Positions 9,039 to 59,920 of a stretch of 64,000 nucleotides of DNA are shown one piece after another. A program made the position numbers and the translations under genes. Within the stretch, counting starts at the first letter, position 1, and every line of letters begins with the position of its first letter. The notes under the pieces were generated by a model that saw nothing but the letters and a program-made list of their open reading frames with translations, did no database searches and was not told the origin of the DNA. This DNA comes from Rhizodiscina lignyota (Eukaryota): positions 310,001 to 374,000 of the forward strand of contig ML978139.1 of assembly GCA_010015805.1 (NCBI GenBank), given 5' to 3'.

Positions 9039-9916
9039 CTAAATCTCCATGTCGCCCGCCTTCTCCATCGCCTTAAGAAGATCACCCTGAAGCAGATTCT
9101 CTACCTCCTCCATGCGCACCGAATCGTAGTCCATCCACACGTCCTCCGGGTGCTGGGGGACGACGTCAAAAGTGTTGCCGTGATCGAATTGAAGTGGTTG
9201 AATGGGCGCCGCCATGAACCACTGAACGGTCGGGTTGTTCGGGATAATGCGTGGGAGCGGAATCATGCGGCGAACGCCCGTCTTCTGCCTCTCTTGTCCC
9301 TCGTACTTCAGCTCGTTGTGGCACGGCCATCCTGTGCGCTGCACCTGACTCCAGCATGGATTCCAGACCGTGGGATGCACGAGCACAGCGCCACGGCCGT
9401 CCCAGAATTGCTTGCCATTGAATGGGGCATTGAGTTGTGACGGTTCTGTCCGACCCTCCTGTTGCTGAGCCTTCTCCATCATGTTCTGTATCTTGGCCTC
9501 GTGAACGTCCACCCCGTGTTGCAAGAAAGCGTCGAGTTCCCACTGCGCGATTTCGGAGGAAGGAAAATGCTTGTCGACTTGGCCCTTGATACGCCTCCAC
9601 CTCCGCTTGTGGATCGTGTACGGACTCTCCCACGTGTTAGAAGACGTATACGCCACGTGTGTTCCCTCGCCCAGCCCACTTTGTGCCATTTGATCAAATG
9701 CAAGCGGTATATCCTCGGGCACCGTTGTCAGCTGTCGGCGATGCGTGTACACCCTGCCAATTTGCGGCGTAGGGACAGGAGGTGCTCCAGTGAGGAGCGG
9801 CGCCGCAGGAGGCGTTATTTGATTGGCGGGCTATGCTCGAGTAAGCCACATCTGTATTGGAAAATATGGTGAAGATGAAGTAGAAATAGTCTGAAATAAC
9901 CCACGTCAACCTGCAT
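9039..9916 (-). CDS. Uncharacterised fungal protein; predicted micro-exon (MQ) at 9911-9916 and intron ~9831-9910
   Basis: 237-aa ORF whose frame stays open up to a TAG acceptor at ~9831; contains WPCHNELKYEG...RMIPLPR. The start is inferred. Confidence 0.65.
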
Positions 9917-12405
9917 AGAGAAGTGTTCTACTAGATGATTGTGGTGAAGGAGAAGGGTTCTGATTCAGTTCGCTACGTGTAGCTTTGGAAGGTGTCGGCG
10001 AATGAACTTGAGCTCACTGACTCCAGGAAATCTGAAATCCTGGAAGGCGGAACATTTTGATCAGCAGACGTCAAGAAAAGAGGCAACAGCGTGCACCCCT
10101 ATTCAGTGATGCAGTGACATCGGAAGAAGTTGCAGTCTTACAGTTCTCGTGATAATTGACCACTCCCTTCAACTGTAGCCTGTAGGCGTGTATGACACCG
10201 TAGGAAGTTGCTTCGAAATAGGGTAATTTCGTGCTTCTTTTTGCGCCTTCTCGTGCTATTGAAATTGGACGTTAGCCTTTCAGACCTGTCCGAAACGTTT
10301 GTTCTGGCGCTAGAAGGAACGCCATAATCTCTTCTTGACATTAATTGTTGAACATCAGCAATCTTCCTCACAGCCTCGATAGTGTCCTCAGCAGGCGAGT
10401 TGTCGGGCCAGTGTCGGACAGCTATCATCGAGCGCCTTCTCCAACTTTGCTGCAGCTCTACACGTTCAGGCCCATCTCTCTTTACCTCCCCATATGGATG
10501 TCTTCTATGCGAGCCCTGGAGTGACATAATCCCAGTCCAAAATGACGGGGCTTAGTGAAGATGGTGTAAATTGGCTTACCTCTGTCTTTGTTGGTTGTCC
10601 TTCTTGTTGAATCAATTCAATGCTGCAGCATGAATGACTCTCAGATGGTGAACACCTTTGGACTTTTTGAAGCACTCGGGTTTTTCACGGCTCGAATTGA
10701 GGAATATCGGCTTGTACCAACTCTCTCAATGTTGTTGTTGATTGTACTCGTGGAAGGCTTGTGGTGGTGTGGCTTTATAGAGAACGAAGGCGCCTCCGAG
10801 ATCGGTTGGTGAGAAAGGGATATCTCGGTTCTCCAAGGTTGGGATCGTGATAAGCTCGATGTGCCTGCTGAAGGCTGTTGGCAAAGAGTTGTTCGAATGG
10901 CCTGATTTCTCCTTATGTGCTGGTCTTCCGATGCCGCAGGCTCGCTTCAAAACGAGTTAACAGTGCCAGATCATGCGCGGAAGTCGTCGTTGCCAAAATG
11001 GAACGCAATGAATTGCCTGACGGAAGCAAGAGAACGTGTCGATGTGAAGCGTCGGCGTTGTGGTTGGCCTGGACGCAGTACGCAATGTGCTAGCGCTCCA
11101 AAGCAAATTTCAAAACAAAAGGCCGTGATGGTTAGTGTTGCAGAACACGTTGCTCCCATGGAAACGCCGCACGGGCATGATTTAGCCACTGGCCCCTCCC
11201 TTGTCCTTGTGGAGGCTTTCGTAATACCTGCTGGAGTACAATAGTTGACAGTAAACACGTCTCCCATTGTAGGCCACTGCCGCCTTGAGAACTACAAGCT
11301 TCACCGCTCAAATTGAAACACCGTCGACTCCTGACCAAAGAAAGGCATGCTGAGAACCGTCCCAGCGATGCCAATTAAAACCATTAACCCGCATGGACGC
11401 TCGTGGAACTCTAGATTCGCGCACAGCTGCGTGTGACGGGAATCGGTTGCATCTGCACCTTACGACGCCTATGGAGAAGCGTGCCGGCATCATTCTTCAC
11501 TGGAGAGCATAGCAGGCACAAGGATACCTCGAGGAGGTATTTCTGCCTCAAGGATGCAGCATCTCTCGTCCACGAGAGAAATCTTTCCATTCTTTGAAGC
11601 TAGAGGTGGCCAAAACGCTGTGGCGAATAACGTCCGGAAGGCAAATCGGCGCAAACGGTCCTTAAACGAACATATCCAGCGTTTCATGAAGCCTGATAGA
11701 ACGTAAGACTGTTCTCAAAGAGCGAAATGACACAGGAGATGGATTTTCTGAAGTCAATCCAGCTTCATATACTCACGATGTGAACCATGGCAAATTCTCT
11801 ACAGCCGTGCCATTCTCACTACAAACCTTTCGATACACCCTACAATCGTGCTCTTGAACCCCTTTTGCGAATCCGTCTCCTCACCCTGACCGCAGAAGCA
11901 CGAATATCATCATCGTCCCCAACTCTAGCATTGGGCTACATAACAAACTATAATACTAATACGAAAGGCAGCAGGCCTTGTCAAGTGCTGAAAGGCCATA
12001 GACGTGTAGACGTAGAAGAAGTGTCTTCAGACAAACGGCAATGATTCATGAGGCCGGACTGCGTCTTCCTTCGCATTAATGGCAAGGAAAGATGTCGACG
12101 CGTTGGACGAACATAATAACTTGGCTACACTGATGCGAAGTGATAAAGCCACGAGGAAAACGTGATCCTGGAACGGTTTGTTGACTTCGTCTCAACTCGC
12201 AGTTGAGATGGAATGAAGATATCGCCGCTCCGAGCCGGGGTTTAACCATACGGACAGGGGTTTCCCTTAGCAATGACGCTAAAGTGGGGAAGCTCCAAAG
12301 CTCGTCAACAGCTTCCAATGACACCAAATACAAACGCTCTCAGTAAATCGATTTGATTCTCGTATTGGACATCAGAACTTTTGCATCTTCCTTCTCTCAA
12401 TCAAC

Positions 12406-13149
12406 ATGAGCGCTCGATCTTCGACCAGATTTCTCTCCCACTCAATCCACTCGACCCTTCGTCCGACTAAGCTCCAATCTTCCAGACATACGTCTTCGTT
12501 ATCCTTTCAATGTCGCCGACACGTCTTTCCTAGAAGCTACAGACACACCGGAATCCCTATCCTGTACTTCTGCCTTCCTGGCCCACGACAATTCCATGTA
12601 GTCGCCAAATCCCAGGCAGGTATCATGCCTGACACGAGCGATCCACAACCAAAGGAGAGCGAACCACATGAACAAGACGTACAACCTGCCGACATCACAT
12701 ATGAAGAGTTCCATAGTCTGGCAGATGCATATTTGGAGGAGCTGCTGCAGAGGGTTGAGAAGATGCAAGAGGGCAATGAGGGCATAGACGTTGAGTATTC
12801 AGTTCGTTCCCATACCTATTTGAGCAATCGAAGTTTTTGGATAGAACTGACTGGCCCACAGGCAGGCGTCATGACAATCGAATTAGCAGACAAAGGGAGT
12901 TACGTCATCAACAAGCAGCCACCAAACAAACAAATATGGCTCAGCTCACCAATCTCTGGGCCGAAGCGATTCGATTGGGTAGTCGTCGGCGAGTCGATGA
13001 ACCAGAAGGAGGGCAGCGGATCAGGAGAATGGGTATATCTCAGAGATGGGTCAAGACTGTCGGATTTGTTGAGGAAGGAGGTTGGCGTAGAGTTTGGCCT
13101 TGGTGAGGAGGCGTGGGAGAGCGAGCAGAGACCAACCGTCACGGAGTGA
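12406..13149 (+). CDS. YFH1: Mitochondrial frataxin; in-frame intron 12802-12861
   Basis: Arg/Ser-rich presequence, then [57 protein letters not shown]. Confidence 0.96.
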
Positions 13150-13580
13150 TAACATGCGGCGCACTTGTGGCTTTGTAAAATACTGATTGGGCGTGGCTGC
13201 ACTATGGACACGAGCGTTGCCTTCTTGAACTGGGATACAGGAAGCCGTTTCTGAATGCACTCATCTCAAATTCACGACTTGTCCCATGCAGATTGACATT
13301 ACTCCGACTATGCTCTCCCTCCAACTTGCAACTTGCCATACACCATCTCCTTTTCACTTCCACCATCTTCACCTCGAACTCGCCGCAATGGTCTGGCCTT
13401 TTGTATGTTGTCTACTTCATCCATGGGGCGGCCTTTTGCCTGCGAGATGATTTGTTGAGATTGTATCCAATCAGGAGCCCCCGGAATCATCGCTGGATGA
13501 ATGCTTAAGCATTCCCAAGATCAGGCTGATGCCTTCTAAGCATGTCGCTGTGTCTTTAATCGGCTAGATCTGATGCTCGT

Positions 13581-13885
13581 TCAGGCAGTGAGCGCAGCCT
13601 GTGCCTTCGGCGCTGGTGGAGCAGGAGGTTCTTCTTCCTTTGGCAGGTCGCTCTGAAAATGGGCGATTAGCTTATGGCACAGAGGAAGATATCAATAACA
13701 CATACAGCTTCAAAGATGACCTTGATCATTAGACTGCAGCTTGGACATACGGCGACTTCTTCGCCATCGCGTAGGTCACCGAGAGAAATTTCGAAGCGAT
13801 CGCCGCAAGGACATGGATAGTGGTAGAGCTGCATTTTCTTGTCGAAAGTCATGTCCTCAATCTCGATTTCGTCGTAGTAAGACAT
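13581..13885 (-). CDS. DPH3: Diphthamide biosynthesis protein 3 (CSL zinc finger); one intron ~13653-13705
   Basis: [37 protein letters not shown]; second exon SDLPKEEEP...ALTA*. Confidence 0.95.
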
Positions 13886-44390: not shown

Positions 44391-45316
44391 ATGGCTCACC
44401 CTTCGTTCACCCCAACCTACCACACCAAGCCCTACGCACAGATATCGGCCTCAAATCCACACCTCTCGTGTAAAGGCAAAGTAGCCTTCATCACCGGTGG
44501 TGGCCGTGGCATTGGCCGTTCGATCGCAAGAGCGTTCGCCATCGCCGGTGCCAAAGTCTTCATCATTGGCCGCTCCGAGGCCAGCTTAAAGGACACGTGG
44601 GAGGAACTATCGAAGGTGAACGAATCTTCCGATCCTGCCGACGCCGCGTACATGGCTGCAGATGCTTGCGATCGCGCTGCGGTAAAATCTGCTCTGGATG
44701 CTGCTATGCGGCTTTTCGGCTCGATAGATATTTTGGTCAACAACGCCGGCTACCTGGATGCAAATCGCTCAATTGTCGACTCCGACTTCGACGACTACTG
44801 GCGCTGCTACGAAGTGAACGTCAAAGCGGGGATCATCATTGCACAGGAATTTCTGCACTTGGCCCAGCCGGGTGCAACGTACATCAACATCTCCTCGGGG
44901 GCGGCGCACATCCCGTATATTCAGAACTTCTCAGCGTACTCCTCCTCGAAGATGGCGTTTGCGAGGATAGTAGAGTTCATGCAGGGAGAGAATCCGGAAC
45001 TCCGGGTATTCAACGTGCAACCGGGAGCGCTCAAGACGGATATGCAGTTGAAGGCACCGCATATTCAGGCTGATGATCATATTGGTAAGTTTGCCAGTAT
45101 GACGTGGTTCTTAGGAGTATTTCAGACTAACAGTCGATCTTCCCAGATTTGCCCGGCGGATTCTGTGTTTGGCTGACCAGTAGTGATGCCGACTTTTTGA
45201 AGGGTCGCTTCGTATGGGTGAACTGGGATGTCGATGAGATGCTGAAGCGCAAGGACGACATCTTGAAGAATGATTTGCTGAGGTTGCGTCTTTCTGGATG
45301 GCCGCGAGAAGACTAA
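44391..45316 (+). CDS. Short-chain dehydrogenase/reductase; intron ~45085-45146
   Basis: VAFITGGGRGIG, IDILVNNAG, YSSSK, VQPG, last exon DLPGGFCVWL...FLKGRFVWVNWDVDE. Confidence 0.93.
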
Positions 45317-45331
45317 GCAGGTACCTCAGCC

Positions 45332-46582
45332 TCATGCATAGGCCTTGTATTTCTTGACAGATTCCCAGTCCAGTCCACACATTTGTAGATTATCTTCGCC
45401 AACCCATTCCGCTGTACCATCCACATCATCCATCAAAGCTGTCATTAATAGTCCAAGCTCTTTCGATTGCTCTACGCTCATACCCGCGGCATCAGTCGAC
45501 CATTGTGATACCCTAAGCTCGAAACGAGGCTTCTGGTCCCATGTCTTTCTCCAATGGTACTCGGATGGAGCTTCCCATAGTTCTGCCTGACCCGTGAACG
45601 ACAGCTTTTCCACTTTGCCACAAACCGGATCCATGCCGTGTCGCATAAAGCTGTAGACGCCCTGAAGCATGTACGATGTGAGAATGGTCCGCCGAACGCT
45701 CTCATCAAACACCCAGAACATCCAGTTCGAATTCTCAATCTGCGACTCGATGCCGAACAGAGGATCCATGAGAGCAGTCTTCAGGGGTTTAAAGTGCTTC
45801 AGCAATTCAACTGTCCACCGGACTTGTACTAGTGCATCAGCTTCGGCTTCCGCTCTGGACCTTATGTCTCCATCTAGAAGTCGCATGATTTGATAAAGGA
45901 CAAGACACCGCGTCGTCACGAGTAGCTCGCTCGGCGTCGCAAATGGTATGTCCTGACGGTCAACTAGCGCCTTAGCTTTCCGCCGGATAACTTCGAAGAC
46001 GAATGTCTGGTTCTCCGCGTTCTTCGTCGAATACAAAGCACACGCGCTAAGTGCATCGAGAATCATCTCGGAAGTCTTCACAGAAAGAAGTTCCTTATGG
46101 ATGAATGGATTGGTCCGGCGTTGGGCGAATCCTGCAGGCCATTTCTTGAGAAGTGCGGCTGCGTAGTAGACTCGGGGCATGTAAGCCTGGCCGGACATAA
46201 TCGAGTTGTCCTCTTCAATCTCTTTCGCCAGAGAACTCGGCATTATAACGTCATCTACGTCGGCATACATTGTCGCATCGGCATACCAGTTCATCTCATT
46301 GCCTAGCGCGAAGGACGGGTTGAAATCCAAGTTATGGCCATCAAAGTTGTTGCTCTCTGGGGTCACAAGCATTGCCACATTTGCAGCATTTCCGTCATGA
46401 GTTGAAACTCCATTCGACGGCATTGCCCCAAAAACAGCAGCGGTGGCGGGAGACGGCGGCTCATTTTGATATGAGCAAGTGAGGCCTCTCTCCGCACATC
46501 TCTTGCAGAGTGGTACGTCCAGACTGCATTTACGCTTTGATTTGACGCAGTTTGCGCACGATCGTCGGATTGGGAGTGGCAT
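45332..46582 (-). CDS. Zn(II)2Cys6 transcription factor
   Basis: RRSCANCVKSKRKCSLDVPLCKRCAERGLTCSY; C-terminal NPFIH, YQIMRLLDGDI, WVFDESVRRT. Confidence 0.94.
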   Translation of the reverse strand: MPLPIRRSCANCVKSKRKCSLDVPLCKRCAERGLTCSYQNEPPSPATAAVFGAMPSNGVSTHDGNAANVAMLVTPESNNFDGHNLDFNPSFALGNEMNWYADATMYADVDDVIMPSSLAKEIEEDNSIMSGQAYMPRVYYAAALLKKWPAGFAQRRTNPFIHKELLSVKTSEMILDALSACALYSTKNAENQTFVFEVIRRKAKALVDRQDIPFATPSELLVTTRCLVLYQIMRLLDGDIRSRAEAEADALVQVRWTVELLKHFKPLKTALMDPLFGIESQIENSNWMFWVFDESVRRTILTSYMLQGVYSFMRHGMDPVCGKVEKLSFTGQAELWEAPSEYHWRKTWDQKPRFELRVSQWSTDAAGMSVEQSKELGLLMTALMDDVDGTAEWVGEDNLQMCGLDWESVKKYKAYA

Positions 46583-46837
46583 CGGATGTTCACATCCTCA
46601 AGAAGGGAACAAGCCGGTTTGTATAGAGGACGGTAGATGATAAATCTTCTGACCTTGACATGGATTTCCTGTCTAAGCCAAATTAGGCTAGACCGTTAAC
46701 CTTCTCTATTTTCCCCTTTCTGCAAGAGATGTTGAAATTCATGAAAAACCCTCAGGATAATATTCAAAGGTGTCTATCTCTTTGAACGCTGAATTCCGAA
46801 GTCTATTTTTGATTCAGTGCCATCTAAAATATCAGAA

Positions 46838-47782
46838 CTATTCTCCAATCCGACGACCTCCCAACCCGACTCCGTTGTCGAATGCAGTGCTCCTCGCGAC
46901 TTTGTCAATGATGTCTAGATCTTTGGTAAACTTGTCGACATATTCTCTCGCTTTGTCCATGGCATCTCCACCAAGAGGTAGCCGCAGACAACCTTTGATA
47001 TCCTCTGCAGCACCCGAACCCGTGCCAGTAGCAACGTCAATGATCACTTTCGCCGCTTTCGCTGGATCTCCTTCCTGAGTTCCATGTATCGTGGGATAAT
47101 GCGACAAGGCGCTATCCACGGGGCCTCCAACATAGTCGTCACCGAGTCCCTTCGCAGGCGTGGCGTATGAGCTCACCAACCAATTTGTCCGAAACAGCCC
47201 AGGCTCGACAATGAGAAGGCGGATCCCAAACGGCTTCAGCTGCAGCGCCAATCCCTCGCCGAGGGCTTCGAGAGCAAATTTAGACGCAGAATACATGATG
47301 CCGCTTGCCATCGATAAGGTCAGGCCGGATATGCTGGACATCATGACTATTGCCCCTCGTCGTTTTTGGCGGAAGTGTGGGATTACGCCTTTGGTCACTT
47401 TTATTGTGCCGAAGAAGTTTGTTTCAAATTGAGCTCGAATCTCCTCTTCACTAGATTTCACTGTCAACATGTAGCCCAGAGATGGATATGGTAGTACTAA
47501 CCTCATATCTTCCAAAGCACCGTAAATTCCATAGCCTGCAGCATTAACAAGTACATCCAGATCTTCTCGCTCCACAAGCTCGCAGACTACCTCTTGGATA
47601 TTGGCAGCAGTCAGATCAAGTTGCAACCATTTCCCTCCAGCTTGAGCGAATTCTGGATGTTGATCTGCCGCCTTTTTGATATTGCGGCCGGTACCAAATA
47701 CCACATGACCTCTCTGAAGCGCGTCCAATGCAATTGCAAGGCCGAGACCGGATGACGCCCCCGTAACAAGAAATTTGTGCAT
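46838..47782 (-). CDS. Short-chain dehydrogenase/reductase (17-beta-HSD-like); in-frame intron 47451-47501
   Basis: FLVTGASSGLG, LDVLVNAAGYG, QFETNFFG, YSASKFALE, IVEPGLFRT, GDPAKAA, RLPLGGDA. Confidence 0.93.
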   Translation of the reverse strand: MHKFLVTGASSGLGLAIALDALQRGHVVFGTGRNIKKAADQHPEFAQAGGKWLQLDLTAANIQEVVCELVEREDLDVLVNAAGYGIYGALEDMRLVLPYPSLGYMLTVKSSEEEIRAQFETNFFGTIKVTKGVIPHFRQKRRGAIVMMSSISGLTLSMASGIMYSASKFALEALGEGLALQLKPFGIRLLIVEPGLFRTNWLVSSYATPAKGLGDDYVGGPVDSALSHYPTIHGTQEGDPAKAAKVIIDVATGTGSGAAEDIKGCLRLPLGGDAMDKAREYVDKFTKDLDIIDKVARSTAFDNGVGLGGRRIGE

Positions 47783-48222
47783 CCCGTCTCTTTCAGTCAC
47801 GATCTTCGAATGTGTCTTGTCCTTTCTTGCGAATGGTCGTTGGGTTGATGAGGTGCCGAGGATCGGCGGAGTGTTGTCCACCGAGTCACGAAACCTCTCC
47901 CCTCTTCAAGTGACGAAGCTAAATACAAGAACTCCGTGCCCTTCTCCAGGTTTCGCTCTTCCAGTCATTAGTGCATCGTCCGGAGAGTATTGCTGCGGGA
48001 TAGATTTCTGGCGCTCCTTTAAGTAAGTTCCGTACCCCACCACAAGGAATGACCCCACTCGAAGCTGACGTTGAAATAAGGATCCATCGATATAGCTGCA
48101 AACAGCCATTGATAATTTCCTTCTGCCACTGAACTTCAAGAATCAATCCTTCTTCTATTTCGGTATAGTCCTTAGTCACTTGAAAACAACCACGCCCCAT
48201 AGACCTCTGAATACGTGCGACA

Positions 48223-49084
48223 ATGTCGTCCGACGCTGAAGTAAAGACTCTATGCGAGGAAATCAAGAAGAATTTTTCAGCGTGTGATGTAATCCTTCTT
48301 TCCACTCGAATGCTTCAAAATGCCAACCTTATGCACTACAGGTGTCAGACGCTCTGCTAACGCTGCACGTGCCTTCTGCGGGTCTGCTCCCGGATATCCG
48401 TATGCCTTCCTCAAATATATTATGGAAGTGAACTTTATTTTCCCCTAATAGATTTTGCTAGACCCAATACCGCGACAGAAGTACTGGTACACTCGTATCG
48501 TTGCGCCCATCAGCACGGTCGTTTTCGTCCCGACAGATCTCTCGCCAGGCAGCCCGTTATGGATTGAGGGCGTCCCAAAGGAGTCCAATATCCCGGCAGG
48601 AAAGCACTTTACAGACATTCCTCCCCCAGGATCCATTCTACTGGAGCATAATCCAAAAGATCAGCTCGTGGCGCTGTTCGGTGATATTGTCGCCACACGT
48701 CTCAAGACCCGCGGCGTTCTGGGTGCCATTGCTAACGGCCGTGGACGCGATTTTGTTTCTTCCGACAAGGTCTGTGATGAGAACTTTACCATGTGGTGCA
48801 AGGGTCTAAGTACCGTGGGCACGTCGATGGAGGCGAAGCCGTGGGCTGTGGACGTGCCGGTCAAGATTGGGAAGGTGGAGGTTAACCCGGGAGACATCAT
48901 GGTCGCGGATGAAGGTGAGAGGGGAATTGCAGTCATTCCGAGGGATAAGCTGAAGAAGATTGTTGAAATGCTTGCGGTGCAAAAGAAGGCAGATGATGGG
49001 CTGCTGAATGACGTAAGGAATGGACAGAGCATGGCGGATGCGATTAAGAATTGGCCGGAGCATTATAGTGTTCAGCCACACTGA
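48223..49084 (+). CDS. RraA-like / 4-hydroxy-4-methyl-2-oxoglutarate aldolase family protein; two short 5' introns
   Basis: FSACD|VSDALL, ALFGDIVATRLKTRG, GRGRD, VNPGDIMVADEGERGIAVIP. Confidence 0.88.
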
Positions 49085-49345
49085 TTGTGCGGACTTTGTG
49101 GCATTATACTATCCACTGCAGTATCTTCAGATGCTCAATTAGTAACAGGACCTATTGTTCGCGCTTGCGTGCGAACTACGAAGGGCCGAGCAAAGTGTGT
49201 CTCTTTCGTACGGAGCTCCCGTCTTTCACAGAGAACCAGTGACGGAAGTTCTCCTCATCTTCATTTTAAATCATCACTTCCATGCGTTCCGACGTCAATG
49301 GTCCAGGCATGCGTTGATTCTTTATTTTCAGGCAGAATAATAACT

Positions 49346-49867
49346 CTACAGATCATGTTCTCTCTGTGGCCACCGAAACAAGTCCATATACTTCTCGACA
49401 AAGTTCAGATCCGTCGTCATCGGGCCCGTAATCCGACTGTCAACTCGGCGATCTCCATTCGAATAGGTCCTATGTTTACGAGAAAGGCTCTCGATTTCGG
49501 CGTCCTCCATTCGCCTGACGGGCCAGAAATCCATAATATCCAATGCGAACTCCCCAGCCGAGGTCAAGGCCTTCCTCGCGGCTTGCCTCATAGCAACCCA
49601 ACGCTCCCCCAATATTGACGTTTTAGAAACACTGCATCCGGATGTCCCAAAACATTCCGGCTCTGCTCTGGTCCGGTGCCCGGTGCAGCGTGTATTGCGA
49701 CATATCCAGAGTCCTTTCCAGCCGACGACTGAGTTAAACCAGTCGCTATACGAAAAGCACTCCTGACATGATGGAGCTCCAGCGCGAAGATGCTCGCCGA
49801 CTAAGTGCTCGGGAATGTCTTTGAGTTTTAGTGCCGATGGGTACGCTGGTGAGGCGAAGTTAAACAT
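49346..49867 (-). CDS. Cys/His-rich domain family, paralogue 1 (173 aa, unknown function)
   Basis: EHLRAGAPSCQECF...LWICRNTRCTGHRTRAEPECFG...W..MR..A..ALTSAGEFALDIMD...TTDL; aligns by eye with paralogues 2-6. Confidence 0.8.
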   Translation of the reverse strand: MFNFASPAYPSALKLKDIPEHLVGEHLRAGAPSCQECFSYSDWFNSVVGWKGLWICRNTRCTGHRTRAEPECFGTSGCSVSKTSILGERWVAMRQAARKALTSAGEFALDIMDFWPVRRMEDAEIESLSRKHRTYSNGDRRVDSRITGPMTTDLNFVEKYMDLFRWPQREHDL

Positions 49868-50078
49868 CGTGTTCTTGCGAAGAGAGTGAATTGTTTAACA
49901 AGACTTGATGGAGAAGTATGACCACTCGAGGAACTGTGATGGAATGACAATATTGAGATTTACTGAGGTGTTCTACGCTAACTTGTATTTAAGGTCGATA
50001 AGTTCAGTGACAAGAACGTTTCGAGGTCCGAGAGCATTCACTCAACGTACCATGTCACATCAATTACCATCGACCAAG

Positions 50079-50630
50079 TCAAGTTGTATCATATGACCAC
50101 AGATCATGCTCTCTCTGCGGCCATCGAAAGAGATCTAAAAATCTCTCCACACGAGCAAGATCTGTCACCACAGGCCCTTTCAACTTGCACATGAGACCAT
50201 AATCAGCCGGAGCCAATAGTACGCCCCTCATTGTCGGCCCTGGGCAAGCATGTCGATAATCATCTGCCAACTGCTGGATATGCATATCAGTCATTTCCCT
50301 GACCGGCCAAAAGTCCATGATGATATCGAGAGCCCATTCACCAGCTTGCGGAAGCGCCTCTTGAGCGGTGCCCCTCACAGCGGCCCAACCGCCGATCCAG
50401 CCGTTTTGATATACTATATGCCTTCTACCGAAGCATTCGGGCTCGACTTTTGTTCGATGGCCGTAACAATGCTCGTTATGGCATTTCCAAAGGCCAGAAG
50501 TAGAGCAAGCGTAGCATTTGCGATTGCATGATGGCTCGCCGGCGCGAATGTGCTCGCATTGTAAATTCTCAGGGACTTCATCGCGATTGACGTCGATTAG
50601 TCGAGTCCATGAAGTGATGCCCGTTGCCAT
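50079..50630 (-). CDS. Cys/His-rich domain family, paralogue 2 (~183 aa)
   Basis: CEHIRAGEPSCNRKCY...LWKCHNEHCYGHRTKVEPECFG...ALPQAGEWALDIIMD...VVTDL; start taken at MATGITSW. Confidence 0.82.
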   Translation of the reverse strand: MATGITSWTRLIDVNRDEVPENLQCEHIRAGEPSCNRKCYACSTSGLWKCHNEHCYGHRTKVEPECFGRRHIVYQNGWIGGWAAVRGTAQEALPQAGEWALDIIMDFWPVREMTDMHIQQLADDYRHACPGPTMRGVLLAPADYGLMCKLKGPVVTDLARVERFLDLFRWPQREHDLWSYDTT

Positions 50631-51107
50631 GATTCCGTTGTAAAGGGAGTTGAAATATAGGAAATATTTGTTTGGCCTCGAAGGAATACCGAGTTTGAAT
50701 CTTTGCAAAAGAACACATTTAAGAGTATGAAACATTCAAACATAATAAATATTAATAGCAATAGCCGGCCTTGTGACAGCCAGTGTCACTATTATGTCCA
50801 TGGGACTACGAAGATATTGTATTTAATTGTGAAACACTGAAGCGCCTTTGTCTTATAATGGAAGCAATGTGATTCAGATCAATTTTTTATTTAGATTCAA
50901 CTTTAGCCTATGAATCTCGCTGCTCATATGAATCTCTCAGTTACCTATTGAGAGCTCGGGAACAGTCATGTATAGACAGATTGGTTATGATAAGCTGCAT
51001 CATCGCTATTCACTCAGCTCATACCTTAATTCTCAGTCTTCCAGCCGCACGACACCAACCCGCTGAAACAATGTAGTAAGTGCGCCGGGAATGGGAAAGG
51101 CGTATCA

Positions 51108-51650
51108 TCATTCCAGAATCCGGTTCATCCTGGACATGTCCGGTAGAGGGATCCCAGCGGCCCTCTCGAAGTCCCAGACCTTTTGCAAAGCGTCGTCGTC
51201 CTGGTTGACAATTCTCCGACCTGTACTGGCAGTGTCTCCTGCCTGAAACTTTGCTGCCACCTCTCGCACCTGAGCCTCGCTCATGCGGATAACATTATCC
51301 CCGTAAACGATAACCTCGAGTGCCCAGTAGTCAGCAGCTGGAAGCGCATGCTTTGCCTTCGCCCGCTGCTTGCGCCAGAAGTTCAAAGTGTGGTTGTAGA
51401 GGAATGGAGCTGTACCAAAGCACTGGAACTCGCACTTGGTACGGTGGCCAATGCAGTGAAGGTTATCGCATTTCCAAGGACCAGCAGAGGCCCTGGTGTA
51501 GCAACCACCTGTGCAGGCTGGACCTTCAAACATGATGTGCTGGCATCGCATCATCTCGGGGACTGCAGCAACATTGACATCGACACCGTTGATGCGCCAC
51601 GTCGTAGTGGTGTTGGCACTAGACCATTCAGGGTGCCAGTAATCGCTCAT
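51108..51650 (-). CDS. Cys/His-rich domain family, paralogue 3 (180 aa)
   Basis: WRING...RCQHIMFEGPACTGGCY...PWKCDNLHCIGHRTKCEFQCFG...ALPAADYWALEVI. Confidence 0.82.
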   Translation of the reverse strand: MSDYWHPEWSSANTTTTWRINGVDVNVAAVPEMMRCQHIMFEGPACTGGCYTRASAGPWKCDNLHCIGHRTKCEFQCFGTAPFLYNHTLNFWRKQRAKAKHALPAADYWALEVIVYGDNVIRMSEAQVREVAAKFQAGDTASTGRRIVNQDDDALQKVWDFERAAGIPLPDMSRMNRILE

Positions 51651-51815
51651 GCTTGATCGATGAAAGTAGAATAAGTTGGTAATCTAGTGAACCGAAAGAG
51701 GTCTCGAGTGGTATTACCAAGTGACTTGCTTGCTTATAGAACTTCTAGCATAGAGGAAGAGTAGTAGACCGAAGACAAGAAACCGCCCTTCTTTTATACC
51801 TTGACACGTTAACCT

Positions 51816-52420
51816 TCAATGCCCTCTTATGACCCCACCGTTACGCAGAGCGCCTAGATCCATTGCCGCATTGCCGGTACATTCTGCCTTCGCGGATGCC
51901 TCCTTAGGTACTCTATAGGCGCGTAAGCAGGCCGAGTCTCCGTAATTCCCTAATCTCGCGACCTCCACAAGCGCCCTCGCCGCGTACCAATCCGTCACAA
52001 CCTGCCTGCCTATTGCCGTGATGGTTGGATCTGCCTCCTCGTACATCCTCGCGAGCATTGACCACTCGATATTAGGAAAGTGCCTTCACTCCGAGACCTC
52101 CTGAGCAAGTGTCCGTCGGCGATGATCTCGAGTGCACATTTTCCGGCCTCGGGAAGCAGTTCGGTGGTGCGCGCGCGAGTTTTAGTCCATCTTCCGGCTT
52201 CACGATTGGCGTAGAGGCATGGTTGGGGCCGAGGCACTGCTAGCCATACTTAACGAGAGAGCTGAAAGCTTTCGAGGTCTATATAGAATAGAAGACTTCT
52301 TGGGGTGTCCAACGTAGTGCGGATTTTCATATTCCCAAAGGCCGCCTGGAGAAGGCTGCTATCAGCCCTTCCTACAGAGTGGGCCATCTCGGGGATCTAT
52401 TATGACACCGCCACGAGCCT
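51816..52420 (-). pseudogene. Cys/His-rich domain family, paralogue 4 (pseudogene)
   Basis: GPLCRKG**QPSPGGLWEYENPHYVGH (conserved C and Y changed to stops, two C changed to Y), KYG*QCLG, then frameshifted RWTKTRARTTELLPEAGKCALEIIADG and RQVVTDWYAA. Confidence 0.8.
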
Positions 52421-52924
52421 CCGGGTGAAGGAGTATAGCAGCCGGCGTTGCTAGCCGCTCCACTTCCTTGCTAATCGCAAAAATGGAGGTCAGCAGAGAT
52501 CGAATTCCGAGACTCGTCGTGCTCCATTCATATCAATATACCACGTCTGGTACTCCCCCGCAGAGAATATTTTGCTTGATGAAATCCATTGGGGATAAGT
52601 GTGAGATTTTTTGGAGAGCTTAATAAATGGCCGAACTAGACAAAAGTAGTAAAATGAGAAAAATGGAACATTTATACTTCCCGAAAAAAGAATATGACGC
52701 AAAAGCCTTCACAGGAAGTCAAGAAAGGTATCGTTTTAAGCGCCAGGTGGAAGCATGGACCTCATGACGATATCTCTTCCAAGCCTTGAGCGCCCTTTGA
52801 GAATATGTCCCATGACGATAGCTCTCTTTCCCACGTCTAATCGGCAGCTGAAACCATGTCTCACGACAATACGTCTTTCCCGCCTCTGGTGGCGTTCCAA
52901 GCCACGATCGATACGCATGCACGT

Positions 52925-53434
52925 TCAAGCTCGCCCTCGCAGCCTCGCCTCACTTACCATCCACACTGCCGCCCCCAAATCAGTGACCACCTCCGTAGGT
53001 ATACTCGGATGTCCATGACGATACATATCAGCAACATAAGTCCACAACTCCGGATCGTGCCTAAGATCTATCTGTTTCAACCACCCATCACATATCAGTT
53101 CTAGCGCCCAAGATCCGGCAGATGGCAGCACTGTAGTCGCCTGTTGGCGCAAACTACGCCATTGGCGTTCGTACACATGGTTCCATGAATTGAGGCCAAT
53201 GCATTGGAAGTCGTAGCGCCACTCGTGGCCAGCGCAGTACGGGTTATGGCATTTGTAAGGGCCACCGGCAGAGGGGGCATAGCAGCCATTGTGTTCGCAG
53301 GCGTGCCCGACGTACTGGAGATGGTAGCACCTGACTTGTGGTGGAACGTTGTCGGGATTTTCGAATTGTCCATTGATGATGTAGAGCGCTCCCTCGGCGG
53401 CCCCTTCCCACCTTGGGGGATTTGGATCTATCAT
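52925..53434 (-). CDS. Cys/His-rich domain family, paralogue 5 (~169 aa)
   Basis: YIING...VRCYHLQYVGHACEHNGCY...PYKCHNPYCAGHEWRYDFQCIG...VLPSAGSWALELICDG...VVTDL; start taken at MIDPNPP. Confidence 0.82.
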   Translation of the reverse strand: MIDPNPPRWEGAAEGALYIINGQFENPDNVPPQVRCYHLQYVGHACEHNGCYAPSAGGPYKCHNPYCAGHEWRYDFQCIGLNSWNHVYERQWRSLRQQATTVLPSAGSWALELICDGWLKQIDLRHDPELWTYVADMYRHGHPSIPTEVVTDLGAAVWMVSEARLRGRA

Positions 53435-53884
53435 ACGCGACACCCTGGGAGACGAGGAATTTTCAGAAAGTTGAGGATGTTGCAGGGTTGCTAATAGTTT
53501 AACGGTGATGTGTGGAAACAACTGAGCTGGCACTTGGGGAACATCAATTAAATAGAGACCTGGAAGATCTGTTGAGCCGTAATGACGACCGTTGGGTATA
53601 TTCATAGGTGTATAAGGGGTTCGTTATCAAGTTCGTGGCCTCCAAAGTCGCCGTACAGAGCCGAGCAAAGTTTCGTTGACCCTTTCCGTGACAATGTTGA
53701 TATCACAGATATGTGTTAGCGCTCTGTGGAACGATCAGGGGTCATACGTACCGAAGTCTCCCAGTCATAGTGACCTTGATAAATTCCTCACATCGTTTCC
53801 CACATTAACAGTATCCCCAAGCCTCGCTCTCGGTCGTAGCTTTGTCGTGGATCTCAGGCGATTATCCTTTACTTAATTAGCAAG

Positions 53885-55834
53885 ATGTGGAGAACAGCAG
53901 CCTCAACCCAAACCTTCCTCATTAACGGCGTGGAAGAGCCCATATCAACCTTCCCTCATGACGCTAATGTCCGCTGCGCGCACATCCTCAACGGGAGTCG
54001 TGGCTGTCAGCATGGCTGCTACCAGACGCACGAAGATATGCGCGGCGACATGCCCCTCAACTGGTATTGCAATAACGTATACTGCAGCGGCCATCCATCG
54101 AAGTATTATGTGCAGTGCTGCGGCACAACGCCTTGGATTTGTGCCGAGAGAGCGCAATCAGCAATAGATCTATCAGGCGTAGCCGATACCCTCTTGCCGG
54201 GGTGTGATGGTTGGGGTCTGGAGATTATCTGCGATGGATACGCTGACTATCTTGAAAGCGCGGACCATATCCAAGAGGTTGCCATGGGGTATGCTACCGG
54301 GGAGGAAGAGTATGTCGGTGATGGCGCGGTTGTATCCGACTTTCAGGCAGCTGCGCAAGAGGTTGAAAGGTTTAGAGCGAACATGCCGCAATGGTTGAAG
54401 GCTATGGTGCCTGTTCAAGATCGGAGACGAGGTATCGTTCCACAGGAGCTATTGGGTGCAGGCGAAGCACACCAAGTTGGCGGGCAATTGAATAACGTAT
54501 TTGGCGGGAACAACGATGGCCACAGTTTCGATGGAAATGAATTGGGACTGTCGACTACAGAGCACATGACTCGTAATCAGCACATCAGGGGTACTCGGCC
54601 ATCCGCTTCCAATCAAAACCTTGGTGATCCAGGCATAAGAGTCTATGGCCATGGACTTGCTGGCGATGACCCAGAGGTACCGGAGCATGAAGGCGAGTAT
54701 GGCAATGACCCAGATGAGGACGAGGAGGAGGACGGAGAGCAAGACGAAGAGGAAGAGGGTGACGATCAAGAAGGCCAGTCCAGTGGCGAAGACGAGCGTC
54801 AAGCGATTGCTGAATCTCTCAAGGCAGCAAAGGCGGAAAAGGCCGCTGCCACTCGAAGGCAGGCTGAGTTGGAAGCTGAAGAACAACAACAGCTTGAAGA
54901 GATCCAAAGAGTAAGCAGAGAGGAAGCGGTGAGAGCGAGACGTGAGGCAGATATGAGAGATCGCATGGAAGAAGAAGCCTTTATGGCAGAACAAATTAGA
55001 ATGATTGAGGAGCAGGGACGAAAGGAAGAAGCGGCCTTTGCCAAAAACCGAAGAAAGTATGGAGAGATCGAAGCCGCGAAGCAGCAGAAACTAGATGACG
55101 CACAGCTCTTGGAAAATCTTAGGCGGATTGAATTGAGGGAGAAGGAGGAGAAGGAGAAGAGAGAATCTGAAGAAATGGAGATGATACGCCAGACGATTAA
55201 GCAAAGTCTGAAAACGACCGAGACACCTAAACAGAGTGGCACAAACAATGCTCCGAAGTCTAAACAGCGCCCCAGAATGAATGTTGAAGAGCGTCGAACC
55301 AGTAGTGGGGCGCACGCTGTATCTGCTTCCCCAGCGAAACCAGCAAGTCGCAGAGCTGAAGATCCCAGAGCTTCTGTGAAGCCCTCTGCTCAGCCGCAGC
55401 CGATCAAGTCTAGACCAACAAAAAACGGAGCATTGCTTAAGGCTCTCAAGGTACACACCACGAGTGCCTCGAAGCCTGCTTCAAATAATCCAAATTCATT
55501 GCGTCAGCCAAAGACCAAGGCCTCGAACACTCTAACTGTCTCTCAGACTCAGACGAGTATAGTAACGACAACGGTCATGAAAAGCTCCGACATCGCATCT
55601 CGTACATTTGGGAAAGCAAAGAAGACTACCAAAGATGCGGCGACGGAGCAGCAGCGGCTGGGATCTGCGACAACTCCAGATCCTTTGCTGGACGGAACCC
55701 GTGAACAAGCACCGCAACATCCATGGCGTGAAGCCGAGGCTAAGCTAGGTCTTCTCCATAATGAGCATGATAGTCTCCCAGGATACAGTGAAATGGCTGC
55801 TCCTGGAATGAGTATCGAGGCCGACTATGAGTGA
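53885..55834 (+). CDS. Cys/His-rich domain family, long paralogue 6 (649 aa) with acidic tract, charged helix carrying UIM-like motifs, and C-terminal LPxY
   Basis: FLING...VRCAHILNGSRGCQHGCY...WYCNNVYCSGHPSKYYVQCCG...LLPGCDGWGLEIICDG...VVSDF; EDERQAIAESLK; LPGY. Confidence 0.85.
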   Translation: MWRTAASTQTFLINGVEEPISTFPHDANVRCAHILNGSRGCQHGCYQTHEDMRGDMPLNWYCNNVYCSGHPSKYYVQCCGTTPWICAERAQSAIDLSGVADTLLPGCDGWGLEIICDGYADYLESADHIQEVAMGYATGEEEYVGDGAVVSDFQAAAQEVERFRANMPQWLKAMVPVQDRRRGIVPQELLGAGEAHQVGGQLNNVFGGNNDGHSFDGNELGLSTTEHMTRNQHIRGTRPSASNQNLGDPGIRVYGHGLAGDDPEVPEHEGEYGNDPDEDEEEDGEQDEEEEGDDQEGQSSGEDERQAIAESLKAAKAEKAAATRRQAELEAEEQQQLEEIQRVSREEAVRARREADMRDRMEEEAFMAEQIRMIEEQGRKEEAAFAKNRRKYGEIEAAKQQKLDDAQLLENLRRIELREKEEKEKRESEEMEMIRQTIKQSLKTTETPKQSGTNNAPKSKQRPRMNVEERRTSSGAHAVSASPAKPASRRAEDPRASVKPSAQPQPIKSRPTKNGALLKALKVHTTSASKPASNNPNSLRQPKTKASNTLTVSQTQTSIVTTTVMKSSDIASRTFGKAKKTTKDAATEQQRLGSATTPDPLLDGTREQAPQHPWREAEAKLGLLHNEHDSLPGYSEMAAPGMSIEADYE

Positions 55835-58078
55835 GATGCTAAGGATTGTGGACTGCGTACGAATTTGTAAGAAAGACATTGGCGAGGTCGAGATCAACGG
55901 ATTCAAGCTTGTTGCCGAGAATAGCTCGGAATTGATGTACCAGGAAAGACAGAATAACGATAGTTGCGATAAAATAGTATTGCCCAGGTGGCTCGGCCCG
56001 TCTATCCTCTCGGTCATCTAACGCATCTAAGTCAGATAGCCTTTCGCTCGAGATGATCAGAACGAAACTGGGGCTGTTGACGGGATTCCGAGAAGAGTCA
56101 ATACCAATTTAAGAATTACGAAAATACCAGCTTTGTCAAGTCGAAGAAGTGAATGGTGAATTTGAGATCAGCTTAGGCGTGCGTGCTAAAGGTTCCACTC
56201 CAAAGGCTCTATGTCCGATAGCCTGTTTCGTATTAGTTATTGCTAATTCAGGACTGTATCCACTACCGAGACCACCAAATTCGGGGGACGGTCTGAGAAT
56301 CCGTCCTCTCTGCCGACCGAAGGCAGGAAAGACGGGATCGAAGATGGAGCTAGAGGCGATAAACGGCAGCACCATCCGGTATTCGCGGCAGGCCGACATA
56401 TGGTGTGCGAAAAGCTTCAGTCCGGTGGTCACTGGCGCCGCGAGATGGTTCCTAAAGGGGGTGCTGAAGGATTACGTGGACTCAATAGAAGTGCAGAGGG
56501 GGAAGTGCAGCATGGGGATCCGACTGATAGACCGACCCCAAAGGTCACTCTAAGTCAAGAAGAGGTCGTGTTACTCCCGGCACTCTGGGCCAGACAGTGA
56601 CGAATGGGAGGAACGAGATGCGATCGGACGGTTCCTCGACGGAGGCTGGTGCTGACCTTGCTGGGAACAGGATTGCTGGGAACAGGATTGCGGCACTGGC
56701 GTTGTGCGTTGTGCCAAGGAAAAGCTTAGCCTTACTTATTTCGACGTCCTATTGCATCATCGCTTCACCACTGCCCTCTTTGTCTGTGTCTTCCGCGGCC
56801 TCTCGCGGTGCGATGTCTTTATCTTGCCGAGTCTCAGATGCTTCCGTTCTATCGAACGTGCGACACGTACCTGATGCGAAGTGCCGCGGACAGGAATGAT
56901 ATGTGTCTCACCCACGCCGTTCACTGCTGGGATCAGGCACTCAGCGCCTGATCTCCTTCAGGCATGGCTCGTCCACACTACCGCCAGCATTCGACCAATC
57001 TGGCGCACTTCACCCCGCCAAACGAGTATTCCTCCGCAATTGGGCCTACGCTTGACGCTGCAGACGCTGGATCCGTGAGTGCAGAGTAGTTTTCGCTCGA
57101 CGTCTTATACAACATACCTGAGATCGAAGTCGGAGTGGGCCAGAAGATGATGAAGATCTCGGCAATTGGGCAGCGTAGCCCAGGCACGTGCGCGGGACGA
57201 TGAGCGAATCGTTTCGCCAGCGTGAGGCTACAAAACTCGAAACTCTTCCTTGACAGCGTCCCGTCCGCGCCGTCGCACCCCGGCCGACGCCTGCGCTATC
57301 TCTGCACTCTGATGCGCTCGATGCGCTCGTGCGTGTACCGTGTCGCTTTTAGCCAATTGTGACGCCATGGCCCAGCTGAGCTGGACCGTCTTTTAAGGCC
57401 CTGTTCGCTCGTGAGGCGGTGCGGGCAAAGCTTCTTATATCACATCATCGACATGCATTCAGTATATGAGTACCTTCGCGCTCGCATTTCCTCATCCTGA
57501 ATCCGTTACTATACCAATGGGGAATACATCTCATTTGTCGTAAATTTAGTGTTAATTCCTTCTACTTGCGCCCCCGGTTGGCGTACCGAACTGACTCAAG
57601 ACGACTGAATTGCGGCAATGTTACAGCGAGATTTACGTCCTTCTGCTTGAGCAACTCGCCGACGCTGAGCTGAGCTCTGATACGTCGGTTCTAGCTGTCG
57701 AGGCACGAAATCTGATATAACATCGTCGTTCTGGAAATAGCCAATTCGGGCCACAATAACGGCGCGGTAACCACGGCGCAGCGCTGCTGACAATCTCAAG
57801 GGAGATGCGATGGCGCGGTGGTTCATAAAGAGACGGGGCAGCTTCTTTGTTCATATCGATCCACAACCAAGGCCATGGTGACGCCTCACTGATGTGATCA
57901 GATAAAGAGATACGGCATCACCCTTAACACAAAGGTCCAGCCATCCGCCAACCAATCCGAGCCGATTGTGAGGAGCAACCACACAAAGAAAAATACATAA
58001 CACAGTCTCACCAATTAATCTCAAAGATTTATTGGAATACTCTCCCACCTATCTTCAATTCCACTCGTTACTCCACCA

Positions 58079-59920
58079 ATGCCAATGGCAACTCTTCGAA
58101 GTCCTTCGCTAAGGTCTTTCCCCGCATCTTGTCTAATGGCGTCCCCATCGTCTGTCTTGTTACTGTTGTTTACCCTACTCACCATCTTCTCAACACCCTC
58201 CTCTGCGAAACCTTATCCATCCGCTTCAGCTTCTCCAGAGGCTCGTCCTTGGGCAAAACCATGGCCGCATCCGAATCCTTTGGCTGCAGCTGCGGCGCCG
58301 TCGCAGAGCAACACCTTCCAGTATGATGTTATCATCTACGGCGGCACTCCGGCGGCAATCAGCGCAGCAGTCCAAGTCAAGCGCATGGGCAAGACTGTTG
58401 CTATAGTCAACCCCGACGAGCATCTTGGTGGACTCACAAGCTCTGGCTTGGGCTGGACGGATTCCAAAAATGGCAACGCGATTGGCGGGATTGCGCGCGA
58501 ATTCTATAGCGCAGTCTACAAACACTATCTCTCCGACTCAGCTTGGATCCAAATGCCACGCCAGGAATACGTCGACATGAAAGTTTCCGCGCAACCTGGT
58601 CCCGCTGTCGACGGCGACAAGGAGATACAATGGACGTTTGAGCCCAAAGTGGCCGAGTCCATCTTCAAATCGTGGATCAATGACAACAATATCCCCGTCT
58701 ACAATGAGCACCTAGACCGATCGAGTGGAAGTGTCTCCAAGTCAGGCACCACAATCAAGGGCTTCAAGACTTTGTCTGGAAAGACGTTCAACGGCAATAT
58801 GTTCATCGATGCCGGCTACGAAGGTGACCTGATGGATGCAGCTGGCATCTCATTTAGCGTCGGTCGTGACAGCGCTTCTGTCTACGGAGAAAGTGCAGGC
58901 GGCCAGCGCGTCGCCGTTAACGATGGATACGAAGGCGTGGATCCGTACAAGACGAAGGGCAACTCGAAGAGTGGCCTTCTACTCGGAATCCAAGATACTC
59001 TCTCATCACCCCTGCCGCAAGGCTTCACGGGATCAGCAGATGACCTTCGCATCCAGTCTTTCAACTACCGCCTCTGTCTCACACATGATCCGGGTAACAA
59101 GATCGTCGTCACCAAGCCCGCCGGCTACCATGACTCCAACTACGAGCTCCTGCTTCGACTAATCGAAGCCGGCCACAACGCGTCCTTCACAGCTGATCCA
59201 ATGCCAAACCGCAAGACCGACTCGAACTCAGAAGGCAAAGTGAGCTTCGACCTCGTCGGCGGCAACTTCAACGAGGCCACTCATGAGACATATCCCACGG
59301 CAAGCTACGATGAGCGCAAGGCAATGATCGACGCCCACAAGAAATACCAGCAAGGTATCCTGTGGACACTTCAGAACCATCCACGCATCCCCGCCGAACA
59401 GCGCAAGAAGAATGCAGAATGGGGCTACGCAAAAGACGAGTTCACGTCCAACAACAACTGGCCCTATTCTATCTACGTCCGTGAATCACGCCGCATGAAC
59501 GGCATGCATGTCCTAACCCAACAGGACGTGCAGAACCGTGCTGGCTACATCGGCGACGCCGTCGCCGGCCTGGGCTCGTACAACCTCGACTCGCACGTCG
59601 TGCGCCGCGTCGTTATGGGCGACCAAATCTACGACGAAGGCTGGTTCTACATCAGAGAAGGCTCGACACCATTCCCCATCCCATACCAAGCCATCTTGCC
59701 GCAGGCAGACGAGGCGACCAACCTGCTCAACCCGGTCACGCTGTCGGCAACGCATGTCGGCTTCTCTGCCGTGCGCATGGAGCCGACGTTCATGGTGCTG
59801 GGCCAGAGCGCGGGCACAGCGGCCGTACTGGCGATCCAGCAGGGCTGTACAGTGCAAGATGTCGATCGGAAGAAGCTGAATAGTCGGCTGAAGAGCGACA
59901 AGCAGAAGGTTAGCTACTAG
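58079..59920 (+). CDS. Secreted FAD-dependent oxidoreductase (FAD_oxidored-type), intronless
   Basis: Hydrophobic signal, then YDVIIYGGTPAAISAAVQ, HLGGLTSSGLG, FEPKVAE, FIDAGYEGDLM, YVRESRRM, GSYNLDSH, IPYQAILP, SATHVGFSAVRMEPTFMVLGQSAGTAA. Confidence 0.9.
   Translation: MPMATLRSPSLRSFPASCLMASPSSVLLLLFTLLTIFSTPSSAKPYPSASASPEARPWAKPWPHPNPLAAAAAPSQSNTFQYDVIIYGGTPAAISAAVQVKRMGKTVAIVNPDEHLGGLTSSGLGWTDSKNGNAIGGIAREFYSAVYKHYLSDSAWIQMPRQEYVDMKVSAQPGPAVDGDKEIQWTFEPKVAESIFKSWINDNNIPVYNEHLDRSSGSVSKSGTTIKGFKTLSGKTFNGNMFIDAGYEGDLMDAAGISFSVGRDSASVYGESAGGQRVAVNDGYEGVDPYKTKGNSKSGLLLGIQDTLSSPLPQGFTGSADDLRIQSFNYRLCLTHDPGNKIVVTKPAGYHDSNYELLLRLIEAGHNASFTADPMPNRKTDSNSEGKVSFDLVGGNFNEATHETYPTASYDERKAMIDAHKKYQQGILWTLQNHPRIPAEQRKKNAEWGYAKDEFTSNNNWPYSIYVRESRRMNGMHVLTQQDVQNRAGYIGDAVAGLGSYNLDSHVVRRVVMGDQIYDEGWFYIREGSTPFPIPYQAILPQADEATNLLNPVTLSATHVGFSAVRMEPTFMVLGQSAGTAAVLAIQQGCTVQDVDRKKLNSRLKSDKQKVSY

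Follow-up and report, generated by a model that had tools for sequence, protein, structure and literature searches.

The window analysed here is a stretch of 64,000 nucleotides from contig ML978139.1 of Rhizodiscina lignyota, a wood-dwelling ascomycete, and all positions are counted from its first letter. At 49346-55834 it holds a tandem array of related genes, made up of five intact open reading frames (ORFs) and one decayed copy, here numbered c1 to c6. An earlier note on this DNA had described six paralogous loci, five on the - strand and the sixth divergent on the + strand, and the coordinates are as it claimed. In BLASTP comparisons of the five intact products all ten pairs are significantly similar, the extremes being c1/c2 (E 2.8e-45, 45% identity over 170 residues) and c1/c6 (E 6e-4). 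The region common to the five copies is approximately 150-170 residues long, with a zinc-type Cys/His module in its N-terminal half and a helical half behind it. The residues P31, H38, C46, C50, C61, N63, C66, G68, H69, C77, G79, A99, L103, L111, I114 and D171 (c3 numbering) are invariant in the five-copy alignment. Judged by sequence comparison, the array represents the expansion, in one lineage, of an unnamed, Dothideomycete-wide Cys/His family, and the domain is not private to the array.

The copies and their annotation

The first copy, c1 (49346-49867, - strand), is an ORF of 173 residues with its zinc-type module at approximately 49646-49813; it has Gly instead of Cys at the first ligand position, and an insertion of eight residues ahead of the fifth. 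In c2 (50079-50735, -; 218 residues) the module, at approximately 50427-50573, has all eight ligands and is followed by the helical half and then by a C-terminal FRWPQREHDLWSY motif; a C-terminal FRWPQREHDL motif is common to c1 and c2. The third copy, c3 (51108-51650, -; 180 residues), is identical to the public protein P0001. Its ORF and its predicted model show a β-hairpin containing the sequence 'ING' (residues 17-26), the zinc-type module (residues 31-79, 51414-51560, -) and the helical half (residues 86-136, 51243-51395, -). The fifth copy, c5 (52925-53605, -), is an intact ORF of 226 residues with all eight ligands, in which the module starts at about residue 58 and its zinc-type part lies at approximately 53195-53344. 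The 'ING' motif is present in the alignment in c3, c5 and c6, as the earlier note had seen, while the V-V-[TS]-D motif that it had also assigned to the shared module is missing from c3.

The sixth copy, c6 (53885-55834, +), is an ORF of 649 residues identical to the public protein P0003. It is divergent from c5, and the 279 bp spacer between the two genes (53606-53884) may, judging by the coordinates, be a shared promoter. The module of c6 is N-terminal (residues 1-170, with the zinc part at approximately 53975-54127), and is followed by an acidic stretch, a long E/K/R-rich helical region, a basic S/T/P-rich region and a conserved end. All of these parts are shared with the relative P0009. The last 50 or so residues (55673-55831, +; DGTRE-APQHPW-EAEA-LGLL...LPGY...APG-SIE) are strongly conserved between the two proteins, the tails being otherwise of low complexity, and may be a short docking motif.

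The remaining copy, c4 (approximately 51951-52520, -), is indeed dead, as had been proposed. Its sequence is spread across three frames and broken by in-frame stops, and tblastn recovers parts of the module from two additional frames at 52085-52388. The copy starts with an 'ING'-like segment and has an in-frame stop right behind the first Cys. Its Cys/His middle is duplicated internally, being found at 52399-52458 in one frame and at 52296-52388 in another, and the duplication as a whole (52296-52458, -) is a degenerate repeat of the 'PSPGG-W-C-N' stretch. The second unit carries two stops, and has Tyr codons at two Cys positions (a G-to-A type of change); several ligand positions are lost. 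The helical half, LLPEAGKCALEIIADGH, is recognisable in the third frame, with the VVTD part in yet another, and the closest sequences to c4 are c5 and P0020. The interval 49000-56000 is contained in one Logan contig, assembled independently from a public DNA run that may itself be the source of the window DNA, with 0 differences and a word depth of 151, and we therefore conclude that neither the array nor the lesions in c4 are assembly artefacts.

These results correct the public annotation of the locus, which lacks one gene, leaves one pseudogene unannotated and contains one model that is probably a fusion. The protein P0002 (hypothetical protein, Rhizodiscina lignyota; Dothideomycetes, Aulographales) is made up of c2, from its internal Met at 50630 onwards, and of c1, the two being joined across an 'intron' of 307 nucleotides (50152..49846, -; GT..AG). 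This splice would delete the C-terminal motif of c2, RVERFLDLFRWPQREHDLWSY, and because c1 keeps the motif, as do P0004 and P0007, two relatives that stand alone, the fusion is probably a prediction artefact and the locus two genes instead of one. As a counterpoint, a single model, that of the relative P0010, does contain two modules. Neither c1 nor c2 is present as a separate protein in the public protein collection; c5 is likewise absent from it with either of the two starts tested, and is apparently an unannotated gene.

Age of the array and the wider family

The earlier note had taken two of the copies for a recent pair, a view that the comparisons do not support. The identity of c1 and c2 is only 45-50%, and the synonymous divergence (dS) of the pair, calculated by NG86, is saturated and not computable; for c3/c5 and c2/c3 it is >2. 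There is no direct DNA repeat of at least 20 nucleotides between any two copies, and the only repeats in the interval 48500-56500 are three matches of 22-23 nucleotides, which are at chance level, with no terminal or direct repeats beyond them. Several copies have relatives of their own elsewhere: P0006 pairs with c3 (43% identity, tree support 89/83) and P0009 with c6 (35% over the full length, tree support 100/99), these being the two pairs that the tree resolves, and the best matches of c5 and c2 are P0005 (50%) and P0004 (49%), respectively. Because P0005, P0006, P0008 and P0009 are each recorded on a contig of equal length (23,118 bases), we infer that they form a matching array in another fungus, in which case P0008 would be a candidate for the intact counterpart of c4. 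The tree and the identities indicate that the array is older than the split of the two species, and that it has mostly been retained, with one death; an array with this history does not look like one in rapid birth-and-death.

A profile of the five copies, compared with 1.84 billion representative proteins, gave 32 matches at E<=1e-3, with 12 at <=1e-10 and 6 at <=1e-30. The 32 include three models from the window, and also P0028, a bacterial protein with PPC repeats that matches weakly and in the helical part only; it was discarded as a false positive and kept out of all alignments. A close group (P0004-P0009, P0011, P0012 and P0020) spans both halves of the module, and the other matches cover only the N-terminal Cys/His half. 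With a profile of 24 sequences, 117 proteins were recovered from 1789 candidates, nearly all of them 140-200 residues long. Only one of these has a precomputed Pfam domain, in a probable fused model with scytalone dehydratase. A metagenome protein of 277 residues, P0073, has a scytalone dehydratase domain (residues 1-106) together with the Cys/His module, and may be a fused model of neighbouring genes. The 'longer' length class consists of a single protein, P0145 (1010 residues), with no informative domain. Two other searches added nothing: a word-indexed search with c3 alone returned only c3 itself, and a pattern for the c1/c2 subfamily matched 196 stretches in the metagenomes, none of which is a relative.

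All of the named members are annotated as 'hypothetical protein'. Their sources include Stagonosporopsis, Boeremia, Alternaria, Curvularia, Periconia, Massarina, Lophium, Mytilinidion, Pseudovirgaria, Polyplosphaeria and Aulographum, among others. The species with taxonomy looked up (7/7) belong to the Dothideomycetes, and we take the remaining named genera to belong to the same class. Literature listings and the opening parts of abstracts yielded no paper on the window proteins or their relatives. A few relatives (P0013, P0017, P0023, P0025 and P0027) are long, with the module at the N-terminus and long tails behind it. Together with P0009 and P0010 they were excluded from the family alignments A2 and A3; P0035, P0073 and P0142-P0144 were excluded from A3.

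The best-conserved columns of the family are the eight Cys/His positions C36, H38, C46, C50, C61, C66, H69 and C77 (c3 numbering). Each is Cys or His in 130-132 of the 133 aligned members, and 127 members have all eight. Six members fall short of this: c1 has Gly at the first position, P0011 has lost two ligands, two are truncated models, P0015 ends early, and the last is P0139. The conserved Cys/His set described in the earlier note is thus a property of the family as a whole, and fails only at the first Cys of c1 among the intact copies. The two His are conserved like the Cys (131/133 each), and for this reason metal binding is favoured over disulfides; a set of eight such positions fits two zinc sites, as had been suggested. 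The signature of the family may be written as [F]P-x3-4-C-x-H-x6-13-C-x3-4-C-Y-x9-18-C-x3-7-C-x-G-H-x6-27-C-F-G. The other near-invariant positions, P31, Y51, G68, F78 and G79, are structural and not catalytic in type, and no invariant polar residue was found besides the ligands in the 133-sequence alignment.

A close comparison is with 'hypothetical proteins' of about 155 residues from the Pleosporales (for example from Alternaria rosae, Curvularia clavata, Boeremia exigua and Stagonosporopsis vannaccii). Like the window copies, these are intronless ORFs that have the zinc-type module with eight ligands and the flanking FP and CFG. They do not have the helical LPxAGxWALE half, and have in addition an N-terminal YFDPLGExEP...PPRPPPxWLP region and a C-terminal KKGERMVC strand, which the window copies do not. 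They are also single-copy at each locus, in contrast to the array in the window. This single-domain subfamily is present as one copy with an uninterrupted ORF in each of 26 metagenome loci, and its ratio of non-synonymous to synonymous divergence (dN/dS) is 0.09-0.58 in all 14 of the usable pairs, so that it is under purifying selection.

Predicted structure and known zinc modules

The domain had been called unrecognised, and searches of the current databases leave it so. None of the five copies matches any Pfam family at threshold, including PHD, LIM, Zn2Cys6, C2H2, MYND, B-box, AN1 and the other Pfam zinc fingers at gathering score, and in a Pfam scan of the 133 members at E<=1 no family was found in more than three of them. 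The zinc-type rows in that scan are both sub-threshold and limited to one member each (DUF4379, E 0.051, and zf-C2H2_7, E 0.2), and the RING models zf-RING_2 and zf-C3HC4 match none of the 133 at E<=1. When hhalign was used to compare the family profile (A5) with six RING proteins encoded in related loci (A6), the probability was 0.2%, with E 0.26 over 10 columns. The five-copy profile has no match among PDB sequences at E<=10. To our knowledge the ligand order of the family, C-x-H...C-x3-4-C...C-x3-7-C-x2-H...C, fits none of the RING, PHD, LIM, B-box, MYND or AN1 patterns. The module nevertheless resembles these two-zinc modules in general terms, having approximately 50 residues, eight Cys/His ligands and little regular secondary structure, and being intracellular; like them, it is fused in some family members to ubiquitin-interaction motifs (UIMs), as in P0013.

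AlphaFold was used to predict the structure of c3 with the 133-sequence alignment. The model has a mean predicted local distance difference test (pLDDT) score of 81.1 and a predicted template modelling (pTM) score of 0.70, with block means of 87-95 over residues 21-140. It starts with the β-hairpin at 17-26, which includes the 'ING' strand. The Cys/His part is rich in loops, with short strands and one short helix from C36/H38, and three helices (86-102, 104-116 and 125-136) pack on it to give one body. Foldseek found no match to the whole model in PDB (best E 1.5), and a search of BFVD with the whole model also found none (best E 0.66); the wide search covered mostly residues 49-180. The ESM Atlas gave no usable feature match for c3 and structural matches of TM<=0.34, and for P0030 it gave only Ascomycota clusters at 0.84-0.87, below the level of a lead. 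The prediction thus points to a probable new fold, as yet unproven. A prediction of a c3 homodimer with four zinc ions, in which the alignment went unused, scored 0.00 and gives no verdict.

The family has well over a hundred members in the largest fungal class, to which many crop-associated genera belong, and no Pfam entry. Its confidently predicted structure resembles nothing solved in whole-model searches, and a definition of the family would clear a block of dark matter from Dothideomycete proteomes and give the catalogue of zinc modules one more ligand signature, a new one. The array itself offers five natural variants of one domain, along with a long scaffold form, as a handy starting set for biochemistry.

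Possible function and alternative explanations

A signal-like hydrophobic core (a 10-residue window of mean Kyte-Doolittle hydropathy >=2.0 within the first 40 residues) is absent from 132 of the 133 members and from all five intact window copies, and no member of the 133 has a transmembrane-like segment; the scan for signals is a crude hydropathy measure and not SignalP. The earlier note's remark that signal peptides are lacking is therefore confirmed at this level. Given the lack of signal and membrane segments, and the fact that the His are conserved like the Cys, the reading that we favour, with moderate confidence, is that the domain is an intracellular, non-enzymatic, two-zinc structural module with a role in binding, belonging to an unnamed Dothideomycete family, and that the window copies are old tandem duplicates of it. 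Both the zinc and a role in binding as opposed to catalysis are suggested by the pattern of conserved residues.

A mechanism can be proposed along these lines. The eight ligands would hold two zinc ions, most simply as C-H-C-C plus C-C-H-C, and the zinc ions would stabilise a small loop-rich domain whose surface binds protein, or possibly nucleic acid, without providing a catalytic site. In the lineage of the window the module is predicted to pack on a three-helix extension (LPxAGxWALExIxD ... VVTD), making a compact domain of approximately 120 residues. Ancient tandem duplication has given four short stand-alone proteins (c1, c2, c3 and c5), the pseudogene c4 and the long c6. In c6 the domain heads an acidic, coiled and basic tail of approximately 480 residues; because this long tail has a conserved architecture common to c6 and P0009, c6 looks scaffold-like, and the short copies would be free versions of its head domain.

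What the module might bind is hinted at by a few of the relatives. In P0013 the module is followed by five UIM-like repeats, which score 23.8 bits against the Pfam UIM family (cutoff 21, E 3.4e-5); the Pfam consensus is e-e-x-x-Phi-x-x-A-Phi-x-x-S-x-x-e. In addition, the single-domain gene has RING or RING-H2 genes as neighbours, at distances of 1.4-5 kb, in the metagenome loci L011, L013, L017/L019, L021 and L008. In the loci of Pleosporales type these genes are at L011:5945-6601, L013:3503-4153 and L021:4559-5686, and at 2071-3288, 11724-12221 and 12721-13326 in L019. One orthologous RING gene is common to L019 and L021 (58% identity), and another to L013 and L019. Two islands in the tail of c6, AIAESLK and TIKQSLK, are conserved in position in P0009, though unproven as UIMs. 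A link to ubiquitin signalling is a lead only, and one that we regard as doubtful. A more elaborate version, to which we attach a still smaller probability, is that a new zinc-stabilised fold acts in a Dothideomycete-specific, ubiquitin-linked pathway, as a recognition or adaptor domain read by RING-H2 ligases or by fused UIMs, and that c1-c5 are diverged receptors sharing or competing for the scaffold c6. If this were true, it would represent an undescribed intracellular surveillance or regulatory system.

Several observations weigh against these proposals. On the zinc module itself, c1 is short of one ligand and P0011 of two. The AlphaFold prediction with five sequences was poor (pLDDT 55) and was not used, which means that the good model leans on the alignment. 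A small known zinc fold, such as a treble clef or a zinc ribbon, may also be hidden in the zinc part (approximately residues 28-82), since the structure searches used the whole model. On the side of ubiquitin, neither the UIM family nor any other Pfam family was found in the c6 tail at E<=10, and under a local model of the five P0013 repeats 350 shuffled controls score as well as the UIM-like islands of c6 and P0009. The RING pattern is absent from all 482 ORF pieces of the window, and so from the surroundings of the array. The RING linkage in the relatives may reflect one inherited gene order and not function.

The alternative to which the earlier note gave most weight is that of a conflict locus, that is a birth-and-death family for allorecognition, meiotic drive or defence, shaped by antagonistic diversification. 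The array does share with the fungal conflict loci known to us, such as het genes and spore killers, a local group of diverged paralogues that includes a pseudogene, and in its tandem layout the dead copy even has an internal duplication. The counterparts in the other fungus are merely 35-50% identical, but this divergence is uncalibrated by housekeeping genes of that fungus. The two-domain form is patchy, being found beyond this genome only in assemblies and one metagenome record, and Aulographum hederae, which is of the same order and is the only such named genome among the matches, gives only the long single-module protein P0025. In L025 the single-domain gene (7938-8402) is directly upstream of a NOD-like receptor (NLR)-type gene with the architecture HET-NACHT(NPHP3_N)-WD40 (9187-13674, +), but an NLR neighbour is found in only one of the 26 loci. 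Unlike the conflict loci, the window array consists of old and retained duplicates without HET, NACHT or killer-type domains, and the Pfam scan of the five copies found no HET, NACHT, NB-ARC, STAND, repeat sensor or toxin-like domain, nor any other domain of allorecognition, in any of them. Because dS is saturated, there are no DNA repeats, and c3, c6, c5 and c2 each have their own nearest counterpart elsewhere, which speaks of retention and not turnover, neither a recent pair nor a conflict locus is supported. The wider family is moreover single-copy in the 26 loci and under purifying selection. We therefore think a conflict locus improbable.

The copies might instead serve a metabolic gene cluster at this locus, as enzymes or in an accessory role, since the array has two short-chain dehydrogenases, a Zn2Cys6 regulator and an RraA-like aldolase on its upstream side and an oxidoreductase dependent on flavin adenine dinucleotide (FAD) on its downstream side. 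However, no polyketide synthase, non-ribosomal peptide synthetase or terpene synthase was found among the ORFs scanned, homologues elsewhere have unrelated neighbours, and there are no conserved polar residues of catalytic type besides the ligands. In c3 the Pfam family for the C-terminal domain of Diels-Alderase gives a sub-threshold match, with E 0.0087 and 16.4 bits where the cutoff is 27. This family is a β-barrel, and the match, which occurs in 1 of the 133 members over a region that is helical in the model, was rejected. A metabolic role is accordingly very unlikely.

Small, Cys-rich proteins in a class full of plant-associated fungi could also be secreted and effector-like, with the Cys in disulfides and no metal. 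This we consider highly improbable, since 132 of the 133 members have no signal-like N-terminal hydrophobic core, the two His vary as little as the Cys, and c6 and several relatives have long charged tails of intracellular type. Lastly, an origin in a transposon or other selfish element, which a Cys/His-rich domain in several copies with one decayed might bring to mind, is scarcely credible, since neither the five copies nor, at E<=1, any of 133 relatives match a Pfam transposase or a zinc domain of transposon type, the interval 48500-56500 holds no terminal or direct repeats above chance level, and the gene is single-copy per locus elsewhere.

Downstream of c6, the approximately 2.2 kb at 55835-58078 contain eight ORF pieces of at least 90 residues, none with a Pfam match at E<=0.01. 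The four genes upstream of the array lie at 44391-49081 and the FAD-dependent oxidoreductase at 58079-59920, and together they may form a small metabolic gene group. As a whole the window carries genes typical of fungi, including a fused tryptophan synthase, a Zn2Cys6 regulator, Pex14 and frataxin.

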